64,000 nt of DNA. It comes from a phage. The notes beneath the pieces are model-generated. The model made no database searches, was not told the DNA's origin, and saw nothing but the letters and a program-made list of their open reading frames with translations. The stretch lies in the NCBI GenBank assembly GCA_027337125.1, contig GCA_027337125.1_3057.1; one strand, given 5' to 3'. Made by a program: the position numbers and the translations under genes. How positions within the stretch are numbered: position 1 is the first letter of the stretch; every line of letters begins with the position of its first letter. This document shows positions 49,788 through 64,000 of the stretch, in pieces.

Positions 49788-50420
49788 ATGAATATAGTAT
49801 ATTGGTTTACATTTGAAGACCGTGTCAAAAATAAGACTCCGCCATACTACTATATCGGTAGTAAATTAAATTGCTCATTTGAGAACGGAATAATATATGA
49901 CTCTTCCGGAAAGGAATACTGGAGTTCGTGTAAACAAAAAAGATTTTTGAATGCGGTAATGCTTCAAAAACCGAGCGTTAAAATAATTCAAATTGATGAT
50001 GATTTGGATGTTATTGAAGCAGAGCGAAAATACCAACTTGAAGTAAATGCCAGAGATAATCCAGACTATTTTAATCTGGTATATGCTGGCGGCGGATTTG
50101 GTGTGAGTGGTGAAACTCACCCAGCTAAAGACCCGGAAGTTAGAGAGCATATGAGATTGGCTAATTATATGAACCGTGACGATTTCAGACCTTGGAAAAC
50201 ATCACGAGCTAATATAGAGTCTTGGAAATTATCTCATATTGCTTACGAGAATTATGTGTTATTATTATCCTCTAATCTGTACGGTAAAACTCCTGGATGG
50301 CGAAGAGTTAAAGGTAATATAAATATAACTGATACAACTGCTAAATCGATGGTAAAGTATTTCAACTCAGGTTGGATACCTCTCGAAGACCCAGAGTATT
50401 GCAAATTATGCCAGCTATGA
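49788..50420 (+). CDS. Seg-like GIY-YIG homing endonuclease (210 aa) inserted between 59 and 32
   Basis: N-terminal IVY...YYIGSK (GIY-YIG-like) with downstream R, E, N residues at expected spacing; occupies the T4 segG (32.1) position. Confidence 0.6.
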   Translation: MNIVYWFTFEDRVKNKTPPYYYIGSKLNCSFENGIIYDSSGKEYWSSCKQKRFLNAVMLQKPSVKIIQIDDDLDVIEAERKYQLEVNARDNPDYFNLVYAGGGFGVSGETHPAKDPEVREHMRLANYMNRDDFRPWKTSRANIESWKLSHIAYENYVLLLSSNLYGKTPGWRRVKGNINITDTTAKSMVKYFNSGWIPLEDPEYCKLCQL

Positions 50421-50474
50421 GGTAAAGTGTCATAGCACCAACTGTTAATTAAATTAAGTTAAAAAGGAAATAAA
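50411..50474 (+). promoter_or_regulatory. Gene 32 translational operator: leader hairpin/pseudoknot (GCUAUGA...UCAUAGC) plus unstructured A/U-rich tract before the start
   Basis: Sequence and layout match the known T4 gene 32 autoregulatory leader. Confidence 0.65.
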
Positions 50475-51380
50475 ATGTTTAAACGTAAATCTACTGCTGA
50501 ACTTGCTGCGCAAATGGCTAAACTGAATGGCAATAAAGGTTTTTCTTCTGAAGATAAAGGCGAGTGGAAACTGAAACTCGATAATGCGGGTAACGGTCAA
50601 GCAGTAATTCGTTTTCTTCCGTCTAAAAATGATGAACAAGCACCATTCGCAATTCTTGTAAATCACGGTTTCAAGAAAAATGGTAAATGGTATATTGAAA
50701 CATGTTCATCTACCCATGGTGATTACGATTCTTGCCCAGTATGTCAATACATCAGTAAAAATGATCTGTACAACACTGACAATAAAGAGTACAGTCTTGT
50801 TAAACGTAAAACTTCTTACTGGGCTAACATTCTTGTTGTAAAAGACCCAGCTGCTCCAGAAAACGAAGGTAAAGTATTTAAATATCGTTTCGGTAAGAAA
50901 ATCTGGGATAAAATCAACGCGATGATTGCGGTTGATGTTGAAATGGGCGAAACTCCGGTTGATGTAACTTGTCCGTGGGAAGGTGCTAACTTTGTACTGA
51001 AAGTTAAACAAGTTTCTGGTTTTAGTAACTACGACGAATCTAAATTCCTGAATCAATCTGCGATTCCAAACATTGATGATGAATCTTTCCAGAAAGAACT
51101 GTTCGAACAAATGGTTGACCTTTCTGAAATGACTTCTAAAGATAAATTCAAATCGTTTGAAGAACTGAGCACTAAATTCAGTCAAGTTATGGGAACTGCT
51201 GCTATGGGTGGTGCCGCAGCGACTGCCGCTAAGAAAGCTGATAAAGTTGCTGATGATTTGGATGCATTCAATGTTGATGACTTCAAAACAAAAACTGAAG
51301 ATGATTTTATGAGCTCAAGCTCTGGCAGTTCATCTAGTGCTGATGACACGGACCTGGATGACCTTTTGAATGACCTTTAA
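50475..51380 (+). CDS. 32: Single-stranded DNA-binding protein gp32
   Basis: 301 aa; matches T4 gp32 including zinc site and acidic C-terminus. Confidence 0.95.
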
Positions 51381-51402
51381 TAGATTATATTACTAATTAA
51401 TT

Positions 51403-51428
51403 GGGGACCCTAGAGGTCCCCTTTTTTA
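51403..51428 (+). terminator. Intrinsic terminator after gene 32 (GGGGACC-cuaga-GGUCCCC + U6)
   Basis: 7-bp G/C stem and T-tract. Confidence 0.8.
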
Positions 51429-51452
51429 TTTCAAAAATTTTTTCACAAAACG

Positions 51453-51482
51453 GTTTACAAGCATAAAGCTTTATGGTACTAT
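51453..51482 (+). promoter_or_regulatory. Early promoter cassette (GTTTAC 51453-51458, -10 TACTAT 51477-51482)
   Basis: Near-identical to cassettes at 2711, 30338, 34138. Confidence 0.65.
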
Positions 51483-51525
51483 ACAACTATCGGCAATACT
51501 GCTGATGATTAAAGAGGAAAATAAT

Positions 51526-51756
51526 ATGGCTAAAGTTGATATTGACATCGTTGATTTTGAATATATTGAAGAAATTATTCGTAATCGTTATCCTGAACTT
51601 AGTATCACAAGTATTCACGATGACCCTAATTATTGCAATTTTTCTATTGTCATTGAAGGTCCTCTTGAAGACCTCACCCGCTTTATGGCTAATGAATATT
51701 GTGATGGCATGGATGCCGAAGACGCAGAATTTTACATGGGACTGATTGAACAATAA
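51526..51756 (+). CDS. Hypothetical acidic protein (76 aa)
   Basis: ATG 51526 with AAGAGGA RBS. Confidence 0.55.
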
Positions 51757-51801
51757 TTATCAAGGGGCTATTACAGCCCCTATCAAAATGAGGAAAACAC
51801 A

Positions 51802-52182
51802 ATGTATATTGGCAAAAAGTATGAACTTGTTCCAAGACTTATTGATACATTTATTAATTATAGTCCACGTTCTAATTCATCAATAGTTAAAATTATTCAA
51901 GATAATGGCGGATGGTTTGAAGTCAAAGAAGTTTTCTTTGCTAATGGATTTAAAGCAGTAAAACACATTGAATGCGCTAATGGAAAGCATTTTTACCTCA
52001 AAGATAGACTTTTAGAAATTTGCGAAGACGAATTTCATTGTTTCCGCGAGTATAAAGAACCGACTTCTGAAGAAGATGAAGTCGAAGACAAGATTTCTGG
52101 CGTAACAAAAATTCACTGCGTTGTAGACGAAAACAATGTAGATGAAATTATTGAACTTTTGCGAAAAACTTTCAAAAAGTAG
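51802..52182 (+). CDS. Hypothetical protein (126 aa)
   Basis: GAGGAAAA RBS; preceded by hairpin AGGGGCU-auuac-AGCCCCU (51763-51781). Confidence 0.55.
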   Translation: MYIGKKYELVPRLIDTFINYSPRSNSSIVKIIQDNGGWFEVKEVFFANGFKAVKHIECANGKHFYLKDRLLEICEDEFHCFREYKEPTSEEDEVEDKISGVTKIHCVVDENNVDEIIELLRKTFKK

Positions 52183-52217
52183 TTTACAGTAGGGTAGTAG
52201 TGTGATACTATTACCCT
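52182..52217 (+). promoter_or_regulatory. Early promoter (GTTTAC 52182-52187, -10 TACTAT) with AGGGTA/TACCCT inverted repeat flanking the -10
   Basis: Consensus hexamers and 6-bp inverted repeat. Confidence 0.55.
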
Positions 52218-52236
52218 ATCAACTAAGGAGAATAAA

Positions 52237-52479
52237 ATGAGATTACAACGCCAGAGCATCAAAGATTCAGAAGTTAAAGGTAAATGGTATTTTAATATCA
52301 TTGGTAAAGATTCTGAGCTTGTTGAAAAAGCTGAACATCTTTTACGTGATATTGGATGGGAAGATGAATGTGATGGATGCCCTCTTTATGAAGATGGAGA
52401 AAGCGCAGGATTCTGGATTTACCATTCTGACGTTGAACAGTTTAAAGCCGATTGGAAAATTGTGAAAAAGTCTGTTTGA
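52237..52479 (+). CDS. Hypothetical protein (80 aa)
   Basis: AAGGAG RBS. Confidence 0.55.
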   Translation: MRLQRQSIKDSEVKGKWYFNIIGKDSELVEKAEHLLRDIGWEDECDGCPLYEDGESAGFWIYHSDVEQFKADWKIVKKSV

Positions 52480-52489
52480 GGAAAATAAT

Positions 52490-52732
52490 ATGATTTTTGT
52501 TTTTGAATTTATGAATGACGAATTCGATTATGCAATTTTTAACGCATTACATAATCCTGATTTAAGTGAATTTAATGAAATGTTTTCTGACGCTTTGAGT
52601 ATGTCAGAAGAATACTGTGGAGAATGTCAACGTGTTTGTGTGACAGTTTTTGAAAACAAAGAAAAGACATATGAAGAGTTATTCTTTGATGCTAATAAAG
52701 CCACTGAATGGTTTATTGAAAAGGGGTTTTGA
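52490..52732 (+). CDS. Hypothetical acidic protein (80 aa)
   Basis: GAGGAAAA RBS. Confidence 0.55.
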   Translation: MIFVFEFMNDEFDYAIFNALHNPDLSEFNEMFSDALSMSEEYCGECQRVCVTVFENKEKTYEELFFDANKATEWFIEKGF

Positions 52733-53690
<958 letters not shown>

Positions 53691-53703
53691 TTATAGGTGC
53701 TAA

Positions 53704-54252
53704 ATGAAACAATACCAAGATTTAATTAAAAATATCCTTGAAAACGGCTATGAAACCGATGACCGAACAGGCACAGGAACAATTGCTTTGTTTGGTACTA
53801 AATTGCGTTGGGATTTAACTAAAGGTTTTCCTGCAGTAACAACAAAAAAGCTCGCCTGGAATGCTTGTATTTCTGAGTTATTGTGGTTCTTATCAGGAAG
53901 TACTAACGTAAATGACCTGCGTCAGCGTACTCACGGGTCTTTAATTGCAGGGAAAACGATTTGGGATGAAAATTACGAAAAACAAGCAAAAGATTTAGGA
54001 TATCATAGCGGTGAGCTTGGCCCAATTTATGGAAAACAATGGCGTGATTTTGGCGGTGTAGACCAAATTGTAGAAGTTATTGATCGTATTAAAACATTTC
54101 CTAATGATAGACGCCAAATTGTTTCTGCGTGGAATCCGGCAGAACTTAAGCAGATGGCATTACCACCTTGTCATATGTTCTATCAGTTTAATGTTCGTAA
54201 TGGCTATTTGGATTTGCAGTGGTATCAACGATCAGTAGATGTTTTCTTGGGT
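53704..54252 (+). CDS. td: Thymidylate synthase, exon 1 (ends at ...DVFLG; 5' splice site after GGT)
   Basis: Matches ThyA N-terminal half; interrupted exactly where the T4 td intron sits. Confidence 0.93.
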
Positions 54253-55268
54253 TAATTGAGGCCTGAGTATAAGGTGACTTATACTTGTAATCTATCTAAA
54301 CGGGGAACCTCTCTAGTAGACAATCCCGTGCTAAATTGTAGGACTGCCCTTTAATAAATACTTCTATATTTAAAGAGGTATTTATGAAAAGCGGAATTTA
54401 TCAGATTAAAAATACTTTAAACAATAAAGTATATGTAGGAAGTGCTAAAGATTTTGAAAAGAGATGGAAGAGGCATTTTAAAGATTTAGAAAAAGGATGC
54501 CATTCTTCTATAAAACTTCAGAGGTCTTTTAACAAACATGGTAATGTGTTTGAATGTTCTATTTTGGAAGAAATTCCATATGAGAAAGATTTGATTATTG
54601 AACGAGAAAATTTTTGGATTAAAGAGCTTAATTCTAAAATTAATGGATACAATATTGCTGATGCAACGTTTGGTGATACATGTTCTACGCATCCATTAAA
54701 AGAAGAAATTATTAAGAAACGTTCTGAAACTGTTAAAGCTAAGATGCTTAAACTTGGACCTGATGGTCGGAAAGCTCTTTACAGTAAACCCGGAAGTAAA
54801 AACGGGCGTTGGAATCCAGAAACCTATAAGTTTTGTAAGTGCGGTGTTCGCATACAAACTTCTGCTTATACTTGCAGTAAATGCAGAAATCGTTCAGGTG
54901 AAAATAATTCATTCTTTAATCATAAGCATTCAGACATAACTAAATCTAAAATATCAGAAAAGATGAAAGGTAAAAAGCCTAGTAATATTAAAAAGATTTC
55001 ATGTGATGGGGTTATTTTTGATTGTGCAGCAGATGCAGCTAGACATTTTAAAATTTCGTCTGGATTAGTTACTTATCGTGTAAAATCTGATAAATGGAAT
55101 TGGTTCTACATAAATGCCTAACGACTATCCCTTTGGGGAGTAGGGTCAAGTGACTCGAAACGATAGACAACTTGCTTTAACAAGTTGGAGATATAGTCTG
55201 ATCTGCATGGTGACATGCAGCTGGATATAATTCCGGGGTAAGATTAACGACCTTATCTGAACATAATG
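54253..55268 (+). mobile_element. Group I self-splicing intron in td (1016 nt) carrying I-TevI
   Basis: Starts TAATTGAGGCCTGAGTATAAGGTGAC, ends ...CATAATG; length identical to T4 td intron; splicing restores the ThyA frame. Confidence 0.93.
54384..55121 (+). CDS. I-TevI: Homing endonuclease I-TevI (GIY-YIG) encoded within td intron
   Basis: 245 aa; MKSGIYQIKNTLNNKVYVGSAKDFEKRW GIY-YIG domain and C-terminal zinc-finger/HTH DNA-binding region; AAGAGG RBS. Confidence 0.95.
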   Translation: MKSGIYQIKNTLNNKVYVGSAKDFEKRWKRHFKDLEKGCHSSIKLQRSFNKHGNVFECSILEEIPYEKDLIIERENFWIKELNSKINGYNIADATFGDTCSTHPLKEEIIKKRSETVKAKMLKLGPDGRKALYSKPGSKNGRWNPETYKFCKCGVRIQTSAYTCSKCRNRSGENNSFFNHKHSDITKSKISEKMKGKKPSNIKKISCDGVIFDCAADAARHFKISSGLVTYRVKSDKWNWFYINA

Positions 55269-55580
55269 CTACCATTTAACATCGCGAGCTATGCTGCTCT
55301 TTTGCATATTGTTGCTGACATGTGTGAACTAGTTCCAGGTGATTTGATATTCTCTGGTGGTAATACACACATTTATTCTAACCATATTGAGCAATGCAAA
55401 GAGATATTAAATAGAACCCCTATGGACCTATGTAAACTCAGTATCAATTGGCCTAATGGATTCAGTCAATACGATACTGAAACTCAAATGTATTGGTTAA
55501 CTGAATATATGACAGCACGAGATTTCGTTCTCAAAGATTATCAGTCCCATGGTGTCTTGAAAGGAAAAATGGCAGTGTAA
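55269..55580 (+). CDS. td: Thymidylate synthase, exon 2
   Basis: LPFNIASYAALLHIV... continues the ThyA active-site region; joined product 286 aa. Confidence 0.93.
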   Translation, partial: LPFNIASYAALLHIVADMCELVPGDLIFSGGNTHIYSNHIEQCKEILNRTPMDLCKLSINWPNGFSQYDTETQMYWLTEYMTARDFVLKDYQSHGVLKGKMAV

Positions 55581-55603
55581 TTTTAATTTAATTGTGAGGA
55601 TAT

Positions 55604-55867
55604 ATGATTTTACGATTTAAAGATACTTCTGGTGTAGTTCTTTTTACACTTCCTAACCCAAGCGAGTTAGAAGTTCCAGGACCAAATCAGCCTATTATAA
55701 TTTATGGCAAAAAATATTATACTCATAAAATGACTCGTGAGTATTTTGATAATAAAATTTCCACAGTTAAAACTTCTTCTGACTGTTATTATGATATTAC
55801 TGTTTTAACGGAAAAACAATATGAAGAATTATCACCGCGCGGGCCGTCTATGCCAGGTAGTGAATAA
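55604..55867 (+). CDS. Hypothetical protein (87 aa)
   Basis: GAGGA RBS. Confidence 0.5.
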
Positions 55868-56147
55868 ATATAAATCCGACTTTGATGTTAATATTCACCG
55901 TGGTACATTTTGGGGAAATTACGTCGGTAAAGATGCTGGCAGCCGGGAGGCTGCCATTGAATTATTCAAAAAAGATTTTATACGTCGAATTAAATCCGGA
56001 GAAATAACTAAAGCACATTTAGAGCCTTTACGTGGAATGAGGCTAGGATGCACATGTAAACCGAAGCCGTGTCATGGTGATATAATAGCTCATATAGTTA
56101 ACCGATTGTTTAAAGACGATTTTCAAGTTGAGGACTTATGCAATTAA
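55821..56147 (+). CDS. Hypothetical protein (start uncertain; alternative GTG 55857) with CxC...C-H cluster
   Basis: ORF overlapping upstream gene; ends overlapping nrdA start. Confidence 0.45.
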
Positions 56148-58402
56148 TTAATGTTATCAAAAGTAGTGGTGTTTCTCAGAGCTTTGACCCGCAAAAAATT
56201 ATTAAAGTTTTATCTTGGGCAGCTGAAGGAACATCAGTCGATCCTTATGAATTATATGAAAATATTAAATCTTATCTCCGTGATGGAATGACAACTGATG
56301 ATATTCAGACTATTGTCATTAAGGCCGCTGCGAATTCTATTTCAGTCGAAGAGCCTGATTATCAATATGTAGCTGCACGCTGTTTAATGTTCGCTCTTCG
56401 TAAGCATGTTTATGGGCAGTATGAACCGCGTTCATTTATTGACCATATTTCTTATTGCGTAAATGAAGGGAAATATGACCCTGAATTATTGTCAAAATAT
56501 TCTGCAGAAGAAATTACATTTTTAGAATCAAAAATTAAGCATGAGCGGGATATGGAATTTACTTATTCCGGGGCAATGCAATTAAAAGAAAAATATCTAG
56601 TTAAAGATAAAAGCACTGGTCAAATTTATGAAACTCCGCAGTTTGCATTTATGACTATCGGAATGGCATTGCACCAAGATGAACCTGTTGATAGATTAAA
56701 ACATGTTATCCGTTTTTATGAAGCAGTATCTACTCGACAGATTTCACTGCCAACTCCTATTATGGCTGGTTGTCGTACTCCGACTCGACAGTTTAGTTCA
56801 TGTGTTGTTATTGAGGCAGGTGATTCATTGAAGTCTATCAATAAGGCTTCTGCTTCAATTGTTGAATATATCTCTAAACGCGCTGGAATTGGTATTAACG
56901 TTGGTATGATTCGTGCCGAAGGTTCTAAGATTGGTATGGGCGAAGTACGACATACTGGTGTTATTCCTTTTTGGAAACATTTTCAGACTGCTGTTAAATC
57001 GTGTTCACAGGGTGGAATTCGTGGCGGCGCTGCTACTGCTTATTATCCTATTTGGCATTTGGAAGTTGAAAATCTTCTCGTTTTGAAAAATAACAAAGGC
57101 GTAGAAGAAAACCGTATCCGTCATATGGATTATGGTGTTCAGCTGAATGATTTGATGATGGAACGTTTTGGAAAGAACGATTACATTACTTTGTTCAGTC
57201 CACATGAAATGGGTGGCGAGCTTTATTATTCTTATTTTAAAGACCAAGACCGTTTCCGTGAATTATACGAAGCTGCAGAAAAAGACCCTAATATTCGTAA
57301 AAAGCGTATTAAAGCCCGTGAACTGTTTGAATTGCTCATGACTGAACGCTCAGGAACAGCAAGGATTTATGTGCAGTTCATTGATAATACGAATAACTAT
57401 ACTCCATTTATTCGTGAAAAGGCACCTATTCGTCAGAGTAACTTGTGCTGTGAAATTGCTATTCCAACAAATGATGTGAATAGTCCTGATGCTGAAATTG
57501 GATTATGCACTTTATCTGCATTTGTATTGGATAACTTCGATTGGCAAGACCAAGATAAAATTAATGAATTGGCAGAAGTTCAAGTTCGTGCTCTTGATAA
57601 TCTGTTGGATTACCAAGGATATCCAGTTCCTGAAGCAGAAAAAGCTAAAAAGCGTCGTAATCTTGGCGTAGGTGTTACTAACTATGCAGCTTGGCTGGCA
57701 AGTAACTTTGCTTCTTATGAAGATGCTAACGATTTAACACATGAACTATTTGAGAGATTACAGTATGGACTCATTAAAGCATCCATTAAGCTCGCCAAAG
57801 AAAAAGGACCTTGCGAATATTATTCAGACACTCGTTGGTCTCGAGGCGAATTACCTATCGACTGGTACAATAAAAAGATTGACCAAATCGCAGCTCCAAA
57901 ATACGTTTGTGATTGGTCGTCGCTGCGGGAAGACCTTAAGCTCTTTGGCATCCGTAATAGCACATTATCAGCACTTATGCCATGTGAGTCATCTTCCCAA
58001 GTTTCTAACAGTACAAACGGTATCGAGCCTCCACGTGGACCAGTCTCTGTTAAAGAATCAAAAGAGGGTTCCTTTAATCAAGTCGTGCCCAATATTGAAC
58101 ATAACATAGACCTCTATGATTATACATGGAAATTAGCTAAGAAAGGTAATAAACCGTATCTTACGCAGGTAGCTATTATGCTGAAATGGGTGTGTCAATC
58201 AGCTTCAGCGAATACATATTATGACCCCCAAATCTTCCCTAAAGGAAAGGTTCCAATGTCAATAATGATTGATGACATGCTATACGGATGGTATTATGGC
58301 ATTAAAAATTTCTATTATCATAATACCCGTGATGGTTCTGGTACTGATGATTATGAAATAGAAACTCCTAAAGCCGACGATTGTGCAGCGTGTAAATTGT
58401 AA
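56138..58402 (+). CDS. nrdA: Aerobic ribonucleotide reductase large subunit NrdA
   Basis: 754 aa; ATP-cone and class I RNR catalytic motifs; matches T4 NrdA. Confidence 0.95.
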   Translation: MQLINVIKSSGVSQSFDPQKIIKVLSWAAEGTSVDPYELYENIKSYLRDGMTTDDIQTIVIKAAANSISVEEPDYQYVAARCLMFALRKHVYGQYEPRSFIDHISYCVNEGKYDPELLSKYSAEEITFLESKIKHERDMEFTYSGAMQLKEKYLVKDKSTGQIYETPQFAFMTIGMALHQDEPVDRLKHVIRFYEAVSTRQISLPTPIMAGCRTPTRQFSSCVVIEAGDSLKSINKASASIVEYISKRAGIGINVGMIRAEGSKIGMGEVRHTGVIPFWKHFQTAVKSCSQGGIRGGAATAYYPIWHLEVENLLVLKNNKGVEENRIRHMDYGVQLNDLMMERFGKNDYITLFSPHEMGGELYYSYFKDQDRFRELYEAAEKDPNIRKKRIKARELFELLMTERSGTARIYVQFIDNTNNYTPFIREKAPIRQSNLCCEIAIPTNDVNSPDAEIGLCTLSAFVLDNFDWQDQDKINELAEVQVRALDNLLDYQGYPVPEAEKAKKRRNLGVGVTNYAAWLASNFASYEDANDLTHELFERLQYGLIKASIKLAKEKGPCEYYSDTRWSRGELPIDWYNKKIDQIAAPKYVCDWSSLREDLKLFGIRNSTLSALMPCESSSQVSNSTNGIEPPRGPVSVKESKEGSFNQVVPNIEHNIDLYDYTWKLAKKGNKPYLTQVAIMLKWVCQSASANTYYDPQIFPKGKVPMSIMIDDMLYGWYYGIKNFYYHNTRDGSGTDDYEIETPKADDCAACKL

Positions 58403-59133
58403 TGAATTATCAAAAAATCTATAATGACCTAATTTCCCGAGCTCAGGCTCGGGAACCTTTATCTGAATATAAAGAGACACATCATATAGTCCCTAAATGC
58501 ATGGGAGGTTCTGATGATAAAGAAAATTTAGTTGAATTAACGGCTAGAGAACATTTTATAGCGCATCTATTACTATGTAAGATAAATGAAGGCCATTTTG
58601 GGCTTGCCTCTGCGTTAACGTTAATGGCAACAGATAAAGCTGGTAATAGAATTAATAACAGATTGTATAGCTTGCACAGAAAATTATTTGCTAAAGCTAA
58701 TTCTGATTTCTTTAAGAAATATTGGAAAAATAATCCTCATCCTAGAGGAATGTTAGGCAAGCATCATAAAAACGAAACTAAACAACATGTATCAAACGTG
58801 AATAGGTATGCATGCCCATCTATCGAAATACATAAATTCTCATTAGATGGGGATTTCATAGAAACCTTTCACTCTATTGCGGCAGCGTCCAGGTCAGTTA
58901 ATGGAAACGGGTCAAATATCAAATATTGTGCTGAGGGTAAATTTCAATATGCCTATGGATTTAGATGGTCATATCAACTTGATACAAAGTTTGATAAAAT
59001 ACAACCAAGAGATTATAAAGGAATCCGCGGTAAGAAATGGATTAATAACGGAAGTGAATGCACGCTTATAGGTAAAGATGATATTATACCGCCAGGTTGG
59101 AAACGCGGCAGAATTTTAAAGAGGAAAAATTAA
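58402..59133 (+). CDS. mobE: Free-standing HNH homing endonuclease MobE between nrdA and nrdB
   Basis: 243 aa; HNH motif ETHHIVPKCMGGSDDKENLVELTAREH; ATGA/TAATG coupling to both neighbours. Confidence 0.8.
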   Translation: MNYQKIYNDLISRAQAREPLSEYKETHHIVPKCMGGSDDKENLVELTAREHFIAHLLLCKINEGHFGLASALTLMATDKAGNRINNRLYSLHRKLFAKANSDFFKKYWKNNPHPRGMLGKHHKNETKQHVSNVNRYACPSIEIHKFSLDGDFIETFHSIAAASRSVNGNGSNIKYCAEGKFQYAYGFRWSYQLDTKFDKIQPRDYKGIRGKKWINNGSECTLIGKDDIIPPGWKRGRILKRKN

Positions 59134-59808
59134 TGTCTACAGTTTTTAATACAAATCCAGTTAATATTTTGACTGAGCCAATGTTTTTTGGTTCTGGATT
59201 AGGTTTAGCTCGATATGATATTCAACGGCATCGAGTATTTGAAGAACTTATTGAGAAGTCTTTATCATTTTTCTGGCGTCCTGAAGAAGTAAACTTAATG
59301 ATGGATGCTGCACAATTTAATAAACTTCCTCAGTATCAGCAAAATATTTTTACTAATAACCTGAAGTATCAATCACTTTTGGATAGCATTCAGGGTCGTG
59401 CACCGTCTGCTGTACTTATGTCATTAATTTCAGACCCAAGCCTTGATACATGGGTTGCAACATGGACATTCAGTGAAACTATTCACTCTCGTTCGTATAC
59501 TCATATTATGCGAAATCTTTATACTGATCCATCAAAGGTATTTGATGAGATTGTATTAGATAAAGCTATTATGAAACGTGCTGAATCTATTGGTCGCTAT
59601 TACGATGATGTTCTGATTAAAACCCGCGAATGGGAAAATGCTAAAGAATTTGTAGAACTAGCTAAAGAATCTCCTGATGCTGTCTTTCGTTTAAACCGAG
59701 CTATTAAACAAGAAGCCGAAGCTAAACGTGCTTTAATGAAATCTCTTTACCTCTGTTTGCACGTTATTAATGCCTTAGAAGCTATTCGTTTTTATGTATC
59801 TTTTGCGT
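59133..59808 (+). CDS. nrdB: Ribonucleotide reductase small subunit NrdB, exon 1 (ends ...RFYVSFA + T of Cys codon)
   Basis: Matches RNR R2 N-terminal part; AGAGGA RBS; frame interrupted at conserved SFAC site. Confidence 0.9.
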
Positions 59809-59894
59809 AAAATGCGCCTTTAAACGGTAACGTTTATCGAAAACTCCTTTAATTGCTGGAAAGTCCTTTATAGGAAAACTAGCAGCCAAGGTTT

Positions 59895-59926
59895 TGCTTG
59901 CACCTTTAATTAGTATAATATAAATA
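59895..59926 (+). promoter_or_regulatory. Stacked candidate middle (MotA box TGCTTGCA + TATAAT) and late (TATAAATA 59919-59926) promoters inside nrdB intron upstream of I-TevIII
   Basis: Exact late octamer; TGCTT box 19 nt upstream of TATAAT. Confidence 0.5.
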
Positions 59927-59953
59927 TGATTATACTTTTAAGAGGATGCACAA

Positions 59954-60763
59954 TTGAACTATAGAAAAATTTGGATAGATGCCAACGGACCTATACCTAA
60001 AGATTCTGATGGAAGAACATACGAAATCCATCATAAAGACGGTAACCGTGAAAATAATGATTTAGATAATTTGATGTGTCTTTCTATACAGGAACATTAT
60101 GATATACATTTAGCTCAAAAAGACTACCAGGCTTGTCATGCTATAAAGCTCAGAATGAAATATTCTCCTGAAGAAATTTCTGAATTAGCTTCTAAAGCCG
60201 CAAAATCTAGAGAAATCCAGGTTTTTAATATCCCTGAAGTACGAGCTAAAAATATTGCCTCTATTAAATCTAAGATAGAAAATGGTACATTTCATCTTTT
60301 AGGTGGTGAAATACAACGTAAATCTAATTTAAATAGAGTTGCATTAGGTATACATAATTTTCAACAAGCTGAGCATGTTGCAAAAGTTAAAGAACGCAAT
60401 ATTGCAGCTATAAAAGAAGGTACTCATGTATTTTGCGGTGGTAAAATGCAGTCAGAAACTCAATCAAAACGGGTAAATGACGGTTCACATCATTTCTTAT
60501 CAGAAGACCATAAGAAAAGAACATCAGCAAAAACATTAGAAATGGTTAAGAACGGGACTCATCCTGCACAAAAAGAAATCACATGTGATTTCTGTGGTCA
60601 TATTGGTAAAGGTCCTGGATTTTATCTAAAACATAATGACAGATGCAAATTAAATCCAAATAGAATTCAATTGAATTGCCCGTATTGTGAAAAGAAAGAT
60701 TTATCACCATCGACGTATAAAAGATGGCACGGCGACAATTGCAAAGCAAGGTTCAACGACTAG
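59954..60763 (+). CDS. I-TevIII: HNH homing endonuclease I-TevIII (full-length, 269 aa; TTG start inferred)
   Basis: HNH motif EIHHKDGNRENNDLDNL...H; C-terminal zinc finger CDFCGH...CPYCEK; AGAGGA RBS 7 nt upstream of TTG. Confidence 0.8.
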   Translation: MNYRKIWIDANGPIPKDSDGRTYEIHHKDGNRENNDLDNLMCLSIQEHYDIHLAQKDYQACHAIKLRMKYSPEEISELASKAAKSREIQVFNIPEVRAKNIASIKSKIENGTFHLLGGEIQRKSNLNRVALGIHNFQQAEHVAKVKERNIAAIKEGTHVFCGGKMQSETQSKRVNDGSHHFLSEDHKKRTSAKTLEMVKNGTHPAQKEITCDFCGHIGKGPGFYLKHNDRCKLNPNRIQLNCPYCEKKDLSPSTYKRWHGDNCKARFND

Positions 60764-60899
60764 TCTTCGGACGTAGGGTCAAGCGACTCGAAATGGGGAG
60801 AATCCCTCCGGGATTGTGATATAGTCTGGTCTGCATGGTAACATGCAGCAGTTCATAAGAGAACGGGTTGAGAATTAGCGAGCTCAATCGAACATAACG

Positions 60900-61402
60900 G
60901 TACCTTTAACTTCCATAAGAACATGGAAATCATGGAAGGTAATGCCAAGATTATGAAGTTCATTGCACGTGATGAGCAGCTTCACCTTAAAGGCACTCAA
61001 TATATTATTCGTCAGCTTCAATCCGGTACTGATGGTGATGAATGGGTTAAAATTGCTCAAGAGTGTGAACAAGAAGCAGTTGATATTTTCATGGAAGTTA
61101 ACCGTCAAGAAAAAGACTGGGCAGTTCATTTATTTAAAGATGGCGATGTTCCTGGATTAAATACAAATAGCATGTGGAGCTTTATTGATTACTTAACTGT
61201 ATCTCGTATGAAACAGTGTGGTCTTCCATGCCCAATTACCGATGCTCCGGTTAAACACCCATATCCTTGGATTCGTGAATATCTTAATTCTGATAATGTT
61301 CAATCCGCGCCACAAGAAGTAGAACTGTCATCTTACCTTGTTGCACAGATTGATAATGATGTTGATGATAAAGTTATGATGAGTTTTAAAAAATACTTTT
61401 AA
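60900..61402 (+). CDS. nrdB: Ribonucleotide reductase small subunit NrdB, exon 2
   Basis: (C)TFNFHKNMEIMEGNAKIMKFIARDEQLHL... continues R2; joined product about 392 aa. Confidence 0.9.
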
Positions 61403-61429
61403 GGAGTGGGCCGCAAGGCCCATTTTATT

Positions 61430-63017
<1,588 letters not shown>

Positions 63018-63078
63018 GCTGTTTACAAGTCCCTCGTGTTGTGTTATAGTAGTCTTACTGACATAACATGAGGACTTT

Positions 63079-63585
63079 ATGATGGATTTACAACTTATTA
63101 CTACTGAAATGGTCGTTGAAGCATATGGTGATACTACAGATGGGATTTCTGTATTTAAAGGAAATCGTCGAGTTGGATATATCACCGATCTTAAGAAAGA
63201 TTTAGCTAAGCAAGTCAAGCGGAAAACGACCATTAAAGAATATCGAAATCGTCGTCTTGAGCAAGCCCGTGATATGCTTCCTGATGCGGTTGAGGAGATG
63301 AAAGTCTTTTTAGAAAATCAGCTTGCGAAATATGATTGTGAAGTGTTTATTAATCAGACTCAACCTAATGTTCATATCAATAATTGTAAATGCTACATCA
63401 TCGTTAATCCTTTGACGGGAAAACATCGTCTTGGAATTAGTAATCCAAATCGTAGTGCATCAGATATGGCAGAAGATGTTGAGGCATGCTTTAAAATTTC
63501 TAAATCTCCAGCTAAACATCATATTTTAATTAACGGTCTTTCTCAAGACGATATTGTAGAGGTTATTAAAACTTTATGCATGTAA
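63079..63585 (+). CDS. alc: Alc (blocks transcription of cytosine-containing DNA)
   Basis: About 168 aa; position after gene 63 as in T4. Confidence 0.75.
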   Translation: MMDLQLITTEMVVEAYGDTTDGISVFKGNRRVGYITDLKKDLAKQVKRKTTIKEYRNRRLEQARDMLPDAVEEMKVFLENQLAKYDCEVFINQTQPNVHINNCKCYIIVNPLTGKHRLGISNPNRSASDMAEDVEACFKISKSPAKHHILINGLSQDDIVEVIKTLCM

Positions 63586-63929
63586 GTAATTTTACAGCTG
63601 GATTGCTATTACTTGTAATAGCATTTGGCGGAACATCTATTATTTTAAAAAATAAGGTAGAAAGATTAGAAACATCGGTTACTGAAATTACAAAAACGGC
63701 CAATGAAAACGCTTTAGCATTGAATGATTTAAAAATTCAATATAATTATATTGATGCGATGAATAATAAAAATCGTGAGGCAATTGCTGCTATTGAGCGT
63801 GAAAATGAAAAACTGCGCAAAGATGCAAAGAAGGCGGATGTGGTGGCTCATAAGCCAGGATTGGTTGAAAAACAAATCAACAACTCCTTCAACAAGTTCG
63901 CAGAAGACATCCAGGACCTTTCTAAATGA
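63576..63929 (+). CDS. Hypothetical membrane-anchored coiled-coil protein (117 aa), pseT.3 position
   Basis: N-terminal TM segment then charged helical region. Confidence 0.55.
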   Translation: MHVSNFTAGLLLLVIAFGGTSIILKNKVERLETSVTEITKTANENALALNDLKIQYNYIDAMNNKNREAIAAIERENEKLRKDAKKADVVAHKPGLVEKQINNSFNKFAEDIQDLSK

Positions 63930-64000
63930 TTAAACTATCAGCAGTAATATTATCTATTGGTCTTCTAGTTGGTTGTTCGACAAAGCCTCTAGAAGTAAAG
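63926..64000 (+). CDS. Putative lipoprotein, 3'-truncated by window edge
   Basis: ATGA-coupled start; signal peptide with LLVGCS lipobox. Confidence 0.45.
   Translation, partial: MIKLSAVILSIGLLVGCSTKPLEVK

Follow-up and report, generated by a model that had tools for sequence, protein, structure and literature searches.

How does a phage make intact NrdB from a gene whose reading frame is interrupted by 1091 nt of other sequence, and what does the interrupting segment encode? The question is raised by the nrdB gene in a 64,000-nt stretch of phage DNA (contig GCA_027337125.1_3057.1; here called the window), in which the gene order frd - td - nrdA - mobE - nrdB - denA - rnlA is that of a T4-like phage (Tequatrovirus). 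The interrupting segment is almost certainly a full-length, RB3-type mobile group I intron of T-even phage nrdB, together with the gene for its homing endonuclease, I-TevIII. In the model that we propose, the RNA would fold as a ribozyme of IA2 type that comprises helices P1-P9.2 and a pseudoknot of P3 and P7, would excise itself between U59808 and G60899 to leave a continuous NrdB mRNA, and would carry the I-TevIII gene within its P6 region.

The analysis computed on the window covers the anatomy of the sequence, its orthology, the retention of essential residues, covariation in the RNA and purifying selection; the steps of splicing, cleavage, homing and regulation are proposed by analogy with published work on T4 and RB3. 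The element is already known. A full-length intron was described in phage RB3 in 1991 (Eddy & Gold 1991, as cited in PMC1865063 and PMC2988022), and the window has an allele of it that diverges slightly from those in print, at an identity of about 98%. Publications on the intron and its endonuclease, on their regulation and on the relationship to the td intron date from 1988 to 2010, and no open question is advanced here. All features described below are on the strand shown (+).

Exons and splice junctions

Exon 1 of nrdB (59133-59808) was delimited from the translation of the joined exons, and RB3 has an annotated two-piece nrdB CDS at the same place. The exon ends ...CGT TTT TAT GTA TCT TTT GCG T, and this last base, at 59808, is the T of a split TGT (Cys) codon; exon 2 (60900-61402) begins GT ACC TTT.... 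When 59133-59808 and 60900-61402 are joined, the resulting 1179 nt encode an uninterrupted NrdB of 392 aa, reading ...RFYVSFACTFNFHKNMEIMEGNAK..., which is colinear with the NrdB proteins of RB3 and T4, and the conserved motif FYVSFAC-TFNF spans the junction. The frame is restored only by exact removal of 59809-60899. An earlier note, made from the sequence alone, had the frame broken after RFYVSFA-T and resumed at 60900, with an intron of about 1091 nt ending in G; these coordinates are exact, and the joined frame is intact.

The interrupting segment (59809-60899, 1091 nt) is assigned to the group I (IA2-type) self-splicing introns of RB3 type on the basis of its identity to the introns of RB3 (97.7%) and Pu-Krd-SF4 (98.5%), a helix model, covariation and a partial match to Rfam RF00028. 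A U in the exon precedes its 5' splice site, and its last base is G60899. From -69 to +70 around the insertion site, the exon sequence is identical in the window, T4 and RB3, and thus the homing site is the biochemically characterised one; the characterised cuts, 14 and 16 bp upstream, fall at 59792/3 and 59794/5 in the window.

The endonuclease gene

Within the intron, a TTG-initiated open reading frame (59954-60763) encodes I-TevIII, 269 aa, as identified by matches to Pfam HNH_3 and PHROG 12324, by orthology with RB3 and by dN/dS. The TTG lies 7 nt past AAGAGGA, and the annotated RB3 CDS uses the same one. The protein is laid out as an N-terminal HNH domain, five repeats of about 22 aa with the pattern G-[TSI]-H-x-F (aa 109-205) and two C-terminal zinc fingers with CX2CX12-13HX3C motifs (aa 211-231 and aa 242-263). 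The HNH_3 match covers aa 4-48 (E 6e-13), and the match to PHROG 12324 ('intron-like DNA endonuclease') covers 1-269 of 269 aa (E 8e-192). With RB3 I-TevIII (YP_009098611), which is encoded at the same intron location, 264 of 269 residues are identical (98.1%). The reading of this frame as a complete HNH and zinc-finger I-TevIII of 269 aa with a TTG start is thus borne out by the characterised RB3 enzyme, down to the start codon. A Pfam FlgM match at aa 74-117 (26.7 bits) was treated as spurious, and a search of PDB sequences for relatives of I-TevIII found none (best E 0.2).

How this gene fares elsewhere can be followed in related phages. A query of 1301 nt spanning the intron has matches in 775 phage records; 127 of these contain the 5' part of the intron, and 85 of the 127 also the 491-nt segment that is deleted in laboratory T4 (60018-60508). 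Among sequenced relatives, the intact form is therefore commoner than the T4 laboratory deletion (85/127 intron-bearing records). The best matches are to the Pu-Krd-SF phages (98.5-98.7%), with RB3 and its relatives next (97.8%). The orthologues that were fetched span every stage of endonuclease decay: the 269-aa ORF is intact in the window, RB3, Pu-Krd-SF4, S16 and Biddle_MM4; there are internal deletions in T4 (intron of 598 nt), AV116 and G8 (592 nt) and SG1 (420 nt); the ORF is broken in U5 (1083 nt); and DCP80 has an ORF-less intron of 309 nt. The DCP80 junction maps to a 7-nt direct repeat, ACAATTG, which occurs in the window at 59950-59956 and 60735-60741.

Is the window allele itself active? 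The RB3 enzyme is an HNH endonuclease that acts as a dimer, makes a double-strand break and uses its two zinc fingers for DNA binding, with low specific activity (PMC1865063). The allele in the window differs from it by five substitutions (D23Y, I90V, D117G, I142V and D246E), of which D23Y lies 3 residues ahead of the catalytic pair H26/H27 and D246E within zinc finger 2. Such changes could mean that the intron splices and the endonuclease is dead or much weakened, at an early stage of the decay seen in T4, with the intron persisting only by trans-homing through mobE. This gene, which encodes an intact free-standing HNH homing endonuclease of 243 aa (58402-59133), is directly upstream of nrdB and has a role in co-mobilising the nrdB intron, including a defective one (PMC2790892); the low activity of even the RB3 enzyme and the many decayed versions listed above (T4, AV116, G8, U5, SG1, DCP80) also fit such a history.

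Yet Y23 is common to four other intact or formerly intact alleles (Pu-Krd-SF4, S16, Biddle and U5), including that of the distant Salmonella phage S16, whose I-TevIII copy is 87% identical. The ORF is full length and retains 8/8 of the residues (H26, H27, N39, H48, C211, C214, C242 and C245) that cannot be replaced by alanine without loss of cleavage or binding (Robbins et al. 2007, PMC1865063); in I-TevIII, the histidine/asparagine set is needed for cleavage and the cysteine set for zinc and DNA binding (PMC1865063). Relative to the four intact copies in RB3, Pu-Krd-SF4, Biddle and S16, the dN/dS of the ORF is 0.07-0.12, which indicates continuing purifying selection on the gene. Loss or serious weakening of the enzyme is on this evidence improbable, and we keep to the reading in which the intron carries an intact I-TevIII.

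Signals upstream of the endonuclease gene

The 145 nt from the 5' splice site to the ORF are identical to RB3 and one base off T4. Just upstream of the ORF, where a middle-promoter-like signal and an exact late promoter had been pointed out beforehand, both are found. The first (59895-59919) is an imperfect MotA-type middle promoter, with the MotA box TGCTTGC, a 12-nt spacer and TATAAT (TGCTT from 59895, then N14, then TATAAT at 59914-59919), and its sequence is identical in T4 and RB3; the MotA-like box is statistically ordinary on its own. The second is an exact copy of the T4 late-promoter consensus, TATAAATA, at 59919-59926. In the AT-rich window this octamer is no more frequent than expected (8 copies against 10.6), and as a candidate promoter it gains weight from a position identical in T4 and RB3, not from statistics. 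Both signals are presumed to function because middle and late promoters have been mapped for three intron ORFs in T4 (PMC2988022). A generic scan for sigma-70 promoters and terminators over 59100-61500 returned background numbers only; T4 middle and late promoters are of another type.

The transcript of this region can form a hairpin (59899-59950) that pairs the Shine-Dalgarno sequence AAGAGG (59940-59945), with a predicted stability of -17.9 kcal/mol (z = -3.4; 0/200 shuffles as stable). The late promoter is in the loop of the hairpin, so that late transcripts would start without its 5' arm. [quoted passage not shown] If it operates here, I-TevIII expression would be held back until late in infection: in read-through and middle transcripts the hairpin would sequester the ribosome-binding site, and transcripts from the late promoter, lacking the 5' arm, would be translatable.

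Overlapping the promoters is an operator-like copy of the intronless nrdB homing site (59891-59918), which matches that site at 17/20 core positions and 21/28 overall, values reached by 0/500 shuffles. The same arrangement has been described as a putative I-TevIII autorepression site (PMC2988022), and by analogy the homing-site-like sequence over the promoters of the window copy would probably let I-TevIII repress its own gene.

Ribozyme fold

Guanosine-dependent self-splicing is established for the T4 orthologue of the nrdB intron (cited in PMC1865063 and PMC2988022), and the helices of a group I core can be laid out on the window sequence on either side of the ORF. On the 5' side, P1 pairs the exon GCGU and the first intron base A (59805-59809) with UGCGC (59813-59817), has its U.G wobble at the 5' splice site (U59808.G59814) and is invariant in 10 orthologues. 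P2 is the hairpin UAAACG-GUAA-CGUUUA (59821-59836), with compensatory changes in 3/6 pairs among orthologues. The 5' strand of P3, CUCCUU (59844-59849), pairs with GGGGAG (60795-60800); the td and nrdD introns pair here with different sequences. P4 (59854-59859 with 59879-59884) is built around P5 (59864-59867 with 59872-59875), and P5 has a compensatory change in SG1 and DCP80.

On the 3' side, the segment 60750-60762 contains the 3' strand of P6 (60750-60752), J6/7 and the 5' strand of P7, GACUA (60758-60762), and is overlapped by the last codons of the ORF and its TAG stop (60761-60763). The extra helices P7.1 (GUC-UUCG-GAC, 60763-60772) and P7.2 (GGGUC-AAGC-GACUC, 60776-60789), which together occupy 60763-60789, are typical of T4 IA2 introns; homologous hairpins are present in td and nrdD, and P7.2 has one compensatory pair. 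The segment 60795-60848 then provides the 3' strand of P3 (60795-60800), P8 (60801-60815), J8/7, the 3' strand of P7, UAGUC (60822-60826), and P9 (60831-60848). The peripheral hairpins P9.1 (60851-60864) and P9.2 (60866-60889) follow, the latter with two compensatory pairs in DCP80.

Folding of the intron with the ORF removed recovers P1, P2, P4, P5, P7.1, P7.2, P9, P9.1 and P9.2; P3, P6, P7 and P8 were placed via homology with td and nrdD, and all are fully complementary. The core helices P3-P9 pair fully and follow the canonical order, and P3 and P7 form the pseudoknot. Covariation was examined in an alignment of 10 nrdB introns (window, RB3, Pu-Krd-SF4, T4, S16, SG1, DCP80, AV116, G8 and Biddle_MM4) in which the row of the window is gap-free. 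The model of 13 helices and 67 pairs forms standard pairs in 668/668 cells across these orthologues, and in eight pairs both partners have changed: P2 has three of these, P9.2 two, and P5, P7.2 and P9 have one each. Slid controls contained 0 compensatory pairs, and 0/500 shuffles reached the observed values. The non-coding flanks of the ORF (145 nt and 136 nt) together form a group I core that covaries.

Covariation was read from the orthologues; for the paralogues, the helices were verified by looking directly for complementary strands. When the td, nrdB and nrdD cores were aligned with MAFFT after removal of the ORFs, the P4-P5 region of nrdB came out misaligned, and this alignment was dropped from pair counting. 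A P6a stem closing the ORF loop (59894-59902 with 60740-60749) is plausible in the window and unsupported by the changes in DCP80, and is kept as tentative. As a separate observation, the stop codon of the ORF (60761-60763) sits within the 5' strand of P7, so that ribosomes finishing the ORF would unwind the core; this agrees with the published reason for delayed translation, which was shown only for I-TevI.

Segments shared with the td intron

The window contains a paralogue, the td group I intron (54253-55268, 1016 nt) with the gene for I-TevI (54384-55121). The earlier note had singled out two segments as nearly identical between the td and nrdB introns, and the counts agree: 55141-55160 of td matches 60774-60793 of nrdB at 19/20 positions, and 55191-55221 matches 60819-60849 at 29/31, with 0 chance matches expected for either pattern (100 shuffles of the window). 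The first segment is P7.2 with its 3' joiner and the second is J8/7-P7'-P9. Outside them the two introns barely align, and the td and T4 nrdD (1033 nt) introns have the same helices in the same order as the nrdB intron.

Two segments 95% and 94% identical, while the remaining intron sequence barely aligns, could be the trace of a recent exchange, by recombination or gene conversion, between the td and nrdB introns of this phage, and Bryk and Belfort reportedly described, in 1990, recombination between T4 introns via shared homologous segments. The segments coincide exactly with the core elements P7.2, J8/7, P7' and P9, however, and the same two are kept in a third paralogue, the T4 nrdD intron. 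They are also nearly invariant in all 10 nrdB-intron orthologues, and the mismatches between td and nrdB are identical in T4. A recent exchange is therefore very unlikely. The shared segments reflect an IA2 ancestor common to the three T4 introns, together with constraint on the catalytic core; the descent of the T4 introns is the subject of Shub et al. 1988, as given in reference 71 of PMC2988022.

Rfam matching and annotation

At the gathering threshold, Rfam gives no match in 50000-64000. Scored directly, RF00028 (Intron_gpI) gives the nrdB intron of the window 36.4 bits (E 3e-7), where the threshold is 50, with a correct alignment of the 3' half alone; the score stays below gathering because about 0.85 kb of ORF splits the core. 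The T4 td and T4 nrdB introns are missed alike, and the T4 nrdD intron, with a contiguous core, scores 105 bits. The ORF-less nrdB intron of DCP80 (309 nt) scores 74.1 bits over the full RF00028 model, with an identical helix assignment. The sub-threshold result is no evidence against an intron, since the model is unable to bridge the ORF.

That there is no intron at all, and that nrdB has been broken up by a free-standing HNH gene into two genes translated on their own (nrdB_1 and nrdB_2), as the two nrdB fragments and 'hypothetical protein' annotated here in many GenBank records and the lack of an Rfam match at gathering score in the window might suggest, has next to no probability, given that exon 1 stops in mid-codon and exact excision alone carries the frame through FYVSFAC, that the non-coding flanks form a covarying core, that Rfam recognises this core when the ORF is absent (DCP80) and that the T4 orthologue is experimentally established as self-splicing (PMC1865063, PMC2988022). 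In annotation, nrdB should appear as one spliced gene and the internal ORF as I-TevIII, not as two fragments and a hypothetical protein; the RB3 record already has a two-piece nrdB CDS and I-TevIII.

Spread and local mosaic

Between the window and Klebsiella phage Biddle_MM4, identity is 97-99% in the intron and only 65-83% in the nrdB exons, a difference that indicates natural horizontal spread of the intron. The surroundings of the window copy are also uneven. Over 24 kb, this phage is about 95% identical to its closest relative in the collection. The mobE gene and the block of intron, exon 2 and denA are 97-100% identical to RB3; the approximately 600 nt of nrdB exon 1 between the mobE and I-TevIII genes have only 85-95% identity with RB3, and in about 50,700 phage records no sequence exceeds 94.8% identity to them. 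It is possible, though rather doubtful, that this local mosaic records natural gene conversion driven by endonucleases, in which an intron of RB3 type homed into an nrdB lineage that is otherwise unsampled, or tracts from mobE and I-TevIII converged on it. If so, the edges of the tracts co-converted by two adjacent homing endonucleases would still be visible in the window, in a wild phage.

Comparison with known systems

The nearest system is the nrdB intron of RB3 (NC_025419, RB3_224/225), which has the same host gene, insertion site, boundaries and 1091-nt length. ORF position, ORF length and TTG start are also shared, the identities are 97.7% (nucleotide) and 98.1% (protein), and the promoter, hairpin, RBS region and homing site are identical. 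Against RB3, the intron has 25 base substitutions and the protein 5 amino-acid substitutions; P9 has one compensatory pair and one change from G-C to G.U, and nrdB exon 1 is only 85-95% identical over its 5' 600 nt.

Comparison with the RB3 and T4 introns had been proposed together with the claim that laboratory T4 carries a shorter intron and a truncated endonuclease ORF. RB3 has the same length, and T4 (NC_000866, T4p230/231) is indeed the deletion form: it lacks the internal 491 nt (60018-60508) and the single bases 59872 and 60896, which leaves an intron of 598 nt. As 491 cannot be divided by 3, the frame shifts, and all that is left in T4 is a chimeric ORF of 97 aa. The deletion removes the HNH domain, and the intron core, splice sites, promoters and C-terminal zinc-finger part are the same as in the window. 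The T4 nrdB intron is not mobile on its own (PMC1865063, PMC2790892).

The td intron with I-TevI and the T4 nrdD intron with I-TevII are paralogous IA2 group I introns. P7, P7.2, J8/7 and P9 are near-identical to those of the nrdB intron, the 3' end is likewise GAACAYAAYG-like, and the ORFs of both introns likewise have a late promoter and an RBS hairpin (PMC2988022). They differ in host gene and in the sequences of P3, P4, P5, P7.1 and P8. The ORF is in P9.1 in the nrdD intron and in P6 in the nrdB intron, and I-TevI and I-TevII are GIY-YIG endonucleases, whereas that of the nrdB intron is of the HNH type. I-HmuI and other phage HNH homing endonucleases likewise combine an HNH (beta-beta-alpha-Me) module with a separate DNA-binding region (PMC1865063); compared with the I-HmuI group, I-TevIII is distinguished by a dimer that makes a double-strand break and by two zinc fingers that bind DNA (PMC1865063).

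Intron transfer and decayed or absent endonuclease ORFs

A clear sign of movement of the nrdB intron (59809-60899) comes from a distant relative, Klebsiella phage vB_KpnM_Biddle_MM4. It shares 97-99% identity with the window in the intron and I-TevIII, whereas its nrdB exons are only 65-83% identical, and the fall in identity is located right at the splice sites. The intron has clearly passed horizontally from one T4-like phage to another that is only distantly related.

Other phages carry the intron with its endonuclease ORF decayed or missing. The ORF has decayed in at least five distinct ways (SG1, U5, AV116, G8 and T4), in introns of 420, 592, 598 and 1083 nt. U5, SG1 and G8 also lack the 6 nt from which the TATAAATA late promoter arises; T4 retains this promoter. 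In phage DCP80, the nrdB intron (positions 1801-2109 of its locus) measures 309 nt and has no ORF. In the window, the I-TevIII ORF is bracketed by two direct copies of the 7-nt sequence ACAATTG (59950-59956 and 60735-60741), and the DCP80 intron junction lies exactly at the position of this repeat. The DCP80 intron looks like the product of a clean ORF loss via microhomology, or else like an ancestral ORF-free state.

Repeats in I-TevIII and variants of P9

The part of I-TevIII that links the HNH domain to the zinc fingers, amino acids 109-205 (window 60278-60568), is made up of five tandem repeats of ~22 residues, each opening with x-G-(T/S/I)-H-x-F. The repeats overlap the minimal DNA-binding region (166C), which was mapped by deletion (PMC1865063); that paper makes no mention of repeats. 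A Pfam match to FlgM at amino acids 74-117 (26.7 bits) is probably spurious.

In the intron core, the P9 helix (60831-60848) of the window differs from that of RB3 in two pairs: 60837 with 60842 shows a compensatory G-C/A-U exchange, and at 60846 a G-C pair replaces G.U. Each of the two P9 forms is found in about half of the ten orthologues examined, the window included.

Possible sequence mosaic and closest genomes

Identity to RB3 varies around nrdB exon 1. The mobE region (58350-59099) is 99-100% identical, and identity is 97-100% from 59736 onward, across the intron and exon 2 to denA; the 5' part of exon 1 (59100-59735), placed between mobE and the intron, reaches only 85-95%, and no phage record in the collection exceeds 94.8% identity to it. 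Together with its flanks, this patch looks like a recombination mosaic that would have the two homing-endonuclease genes as its bounds.

Over the 24 kb from 40000 to 64000, identity to the nearest genomes in the August 2025 version of the collection, those of Salmonella phage pSe_SNUABM_01, EC128 and the Pu-Krd-SF phages, is no more than ~94.7-94.9%. The source phage is therefore absent from that version and lies near the species boundary.

Neighboring genes compared with RB3 and T4

In the window, mobE (58402-59133) is a single intact ORF of 243 aa with HNH and NUMOD1 domains, whose stop overlaps the start codon of nrdB (TAATG). RB3 likewise has one intact mobE ORF; the T4 reference differs, with a mobE of 141 aa followed by nrdB.1. 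Between frd, here 205 aa, and td lies a 115-aa ORF (53343-53690) that matches PHROG 1928, of unknown function (E 8e-36), and has no match in Pfam. T4, in contrast, has no gene at this position, and its frd overlaps td directly.
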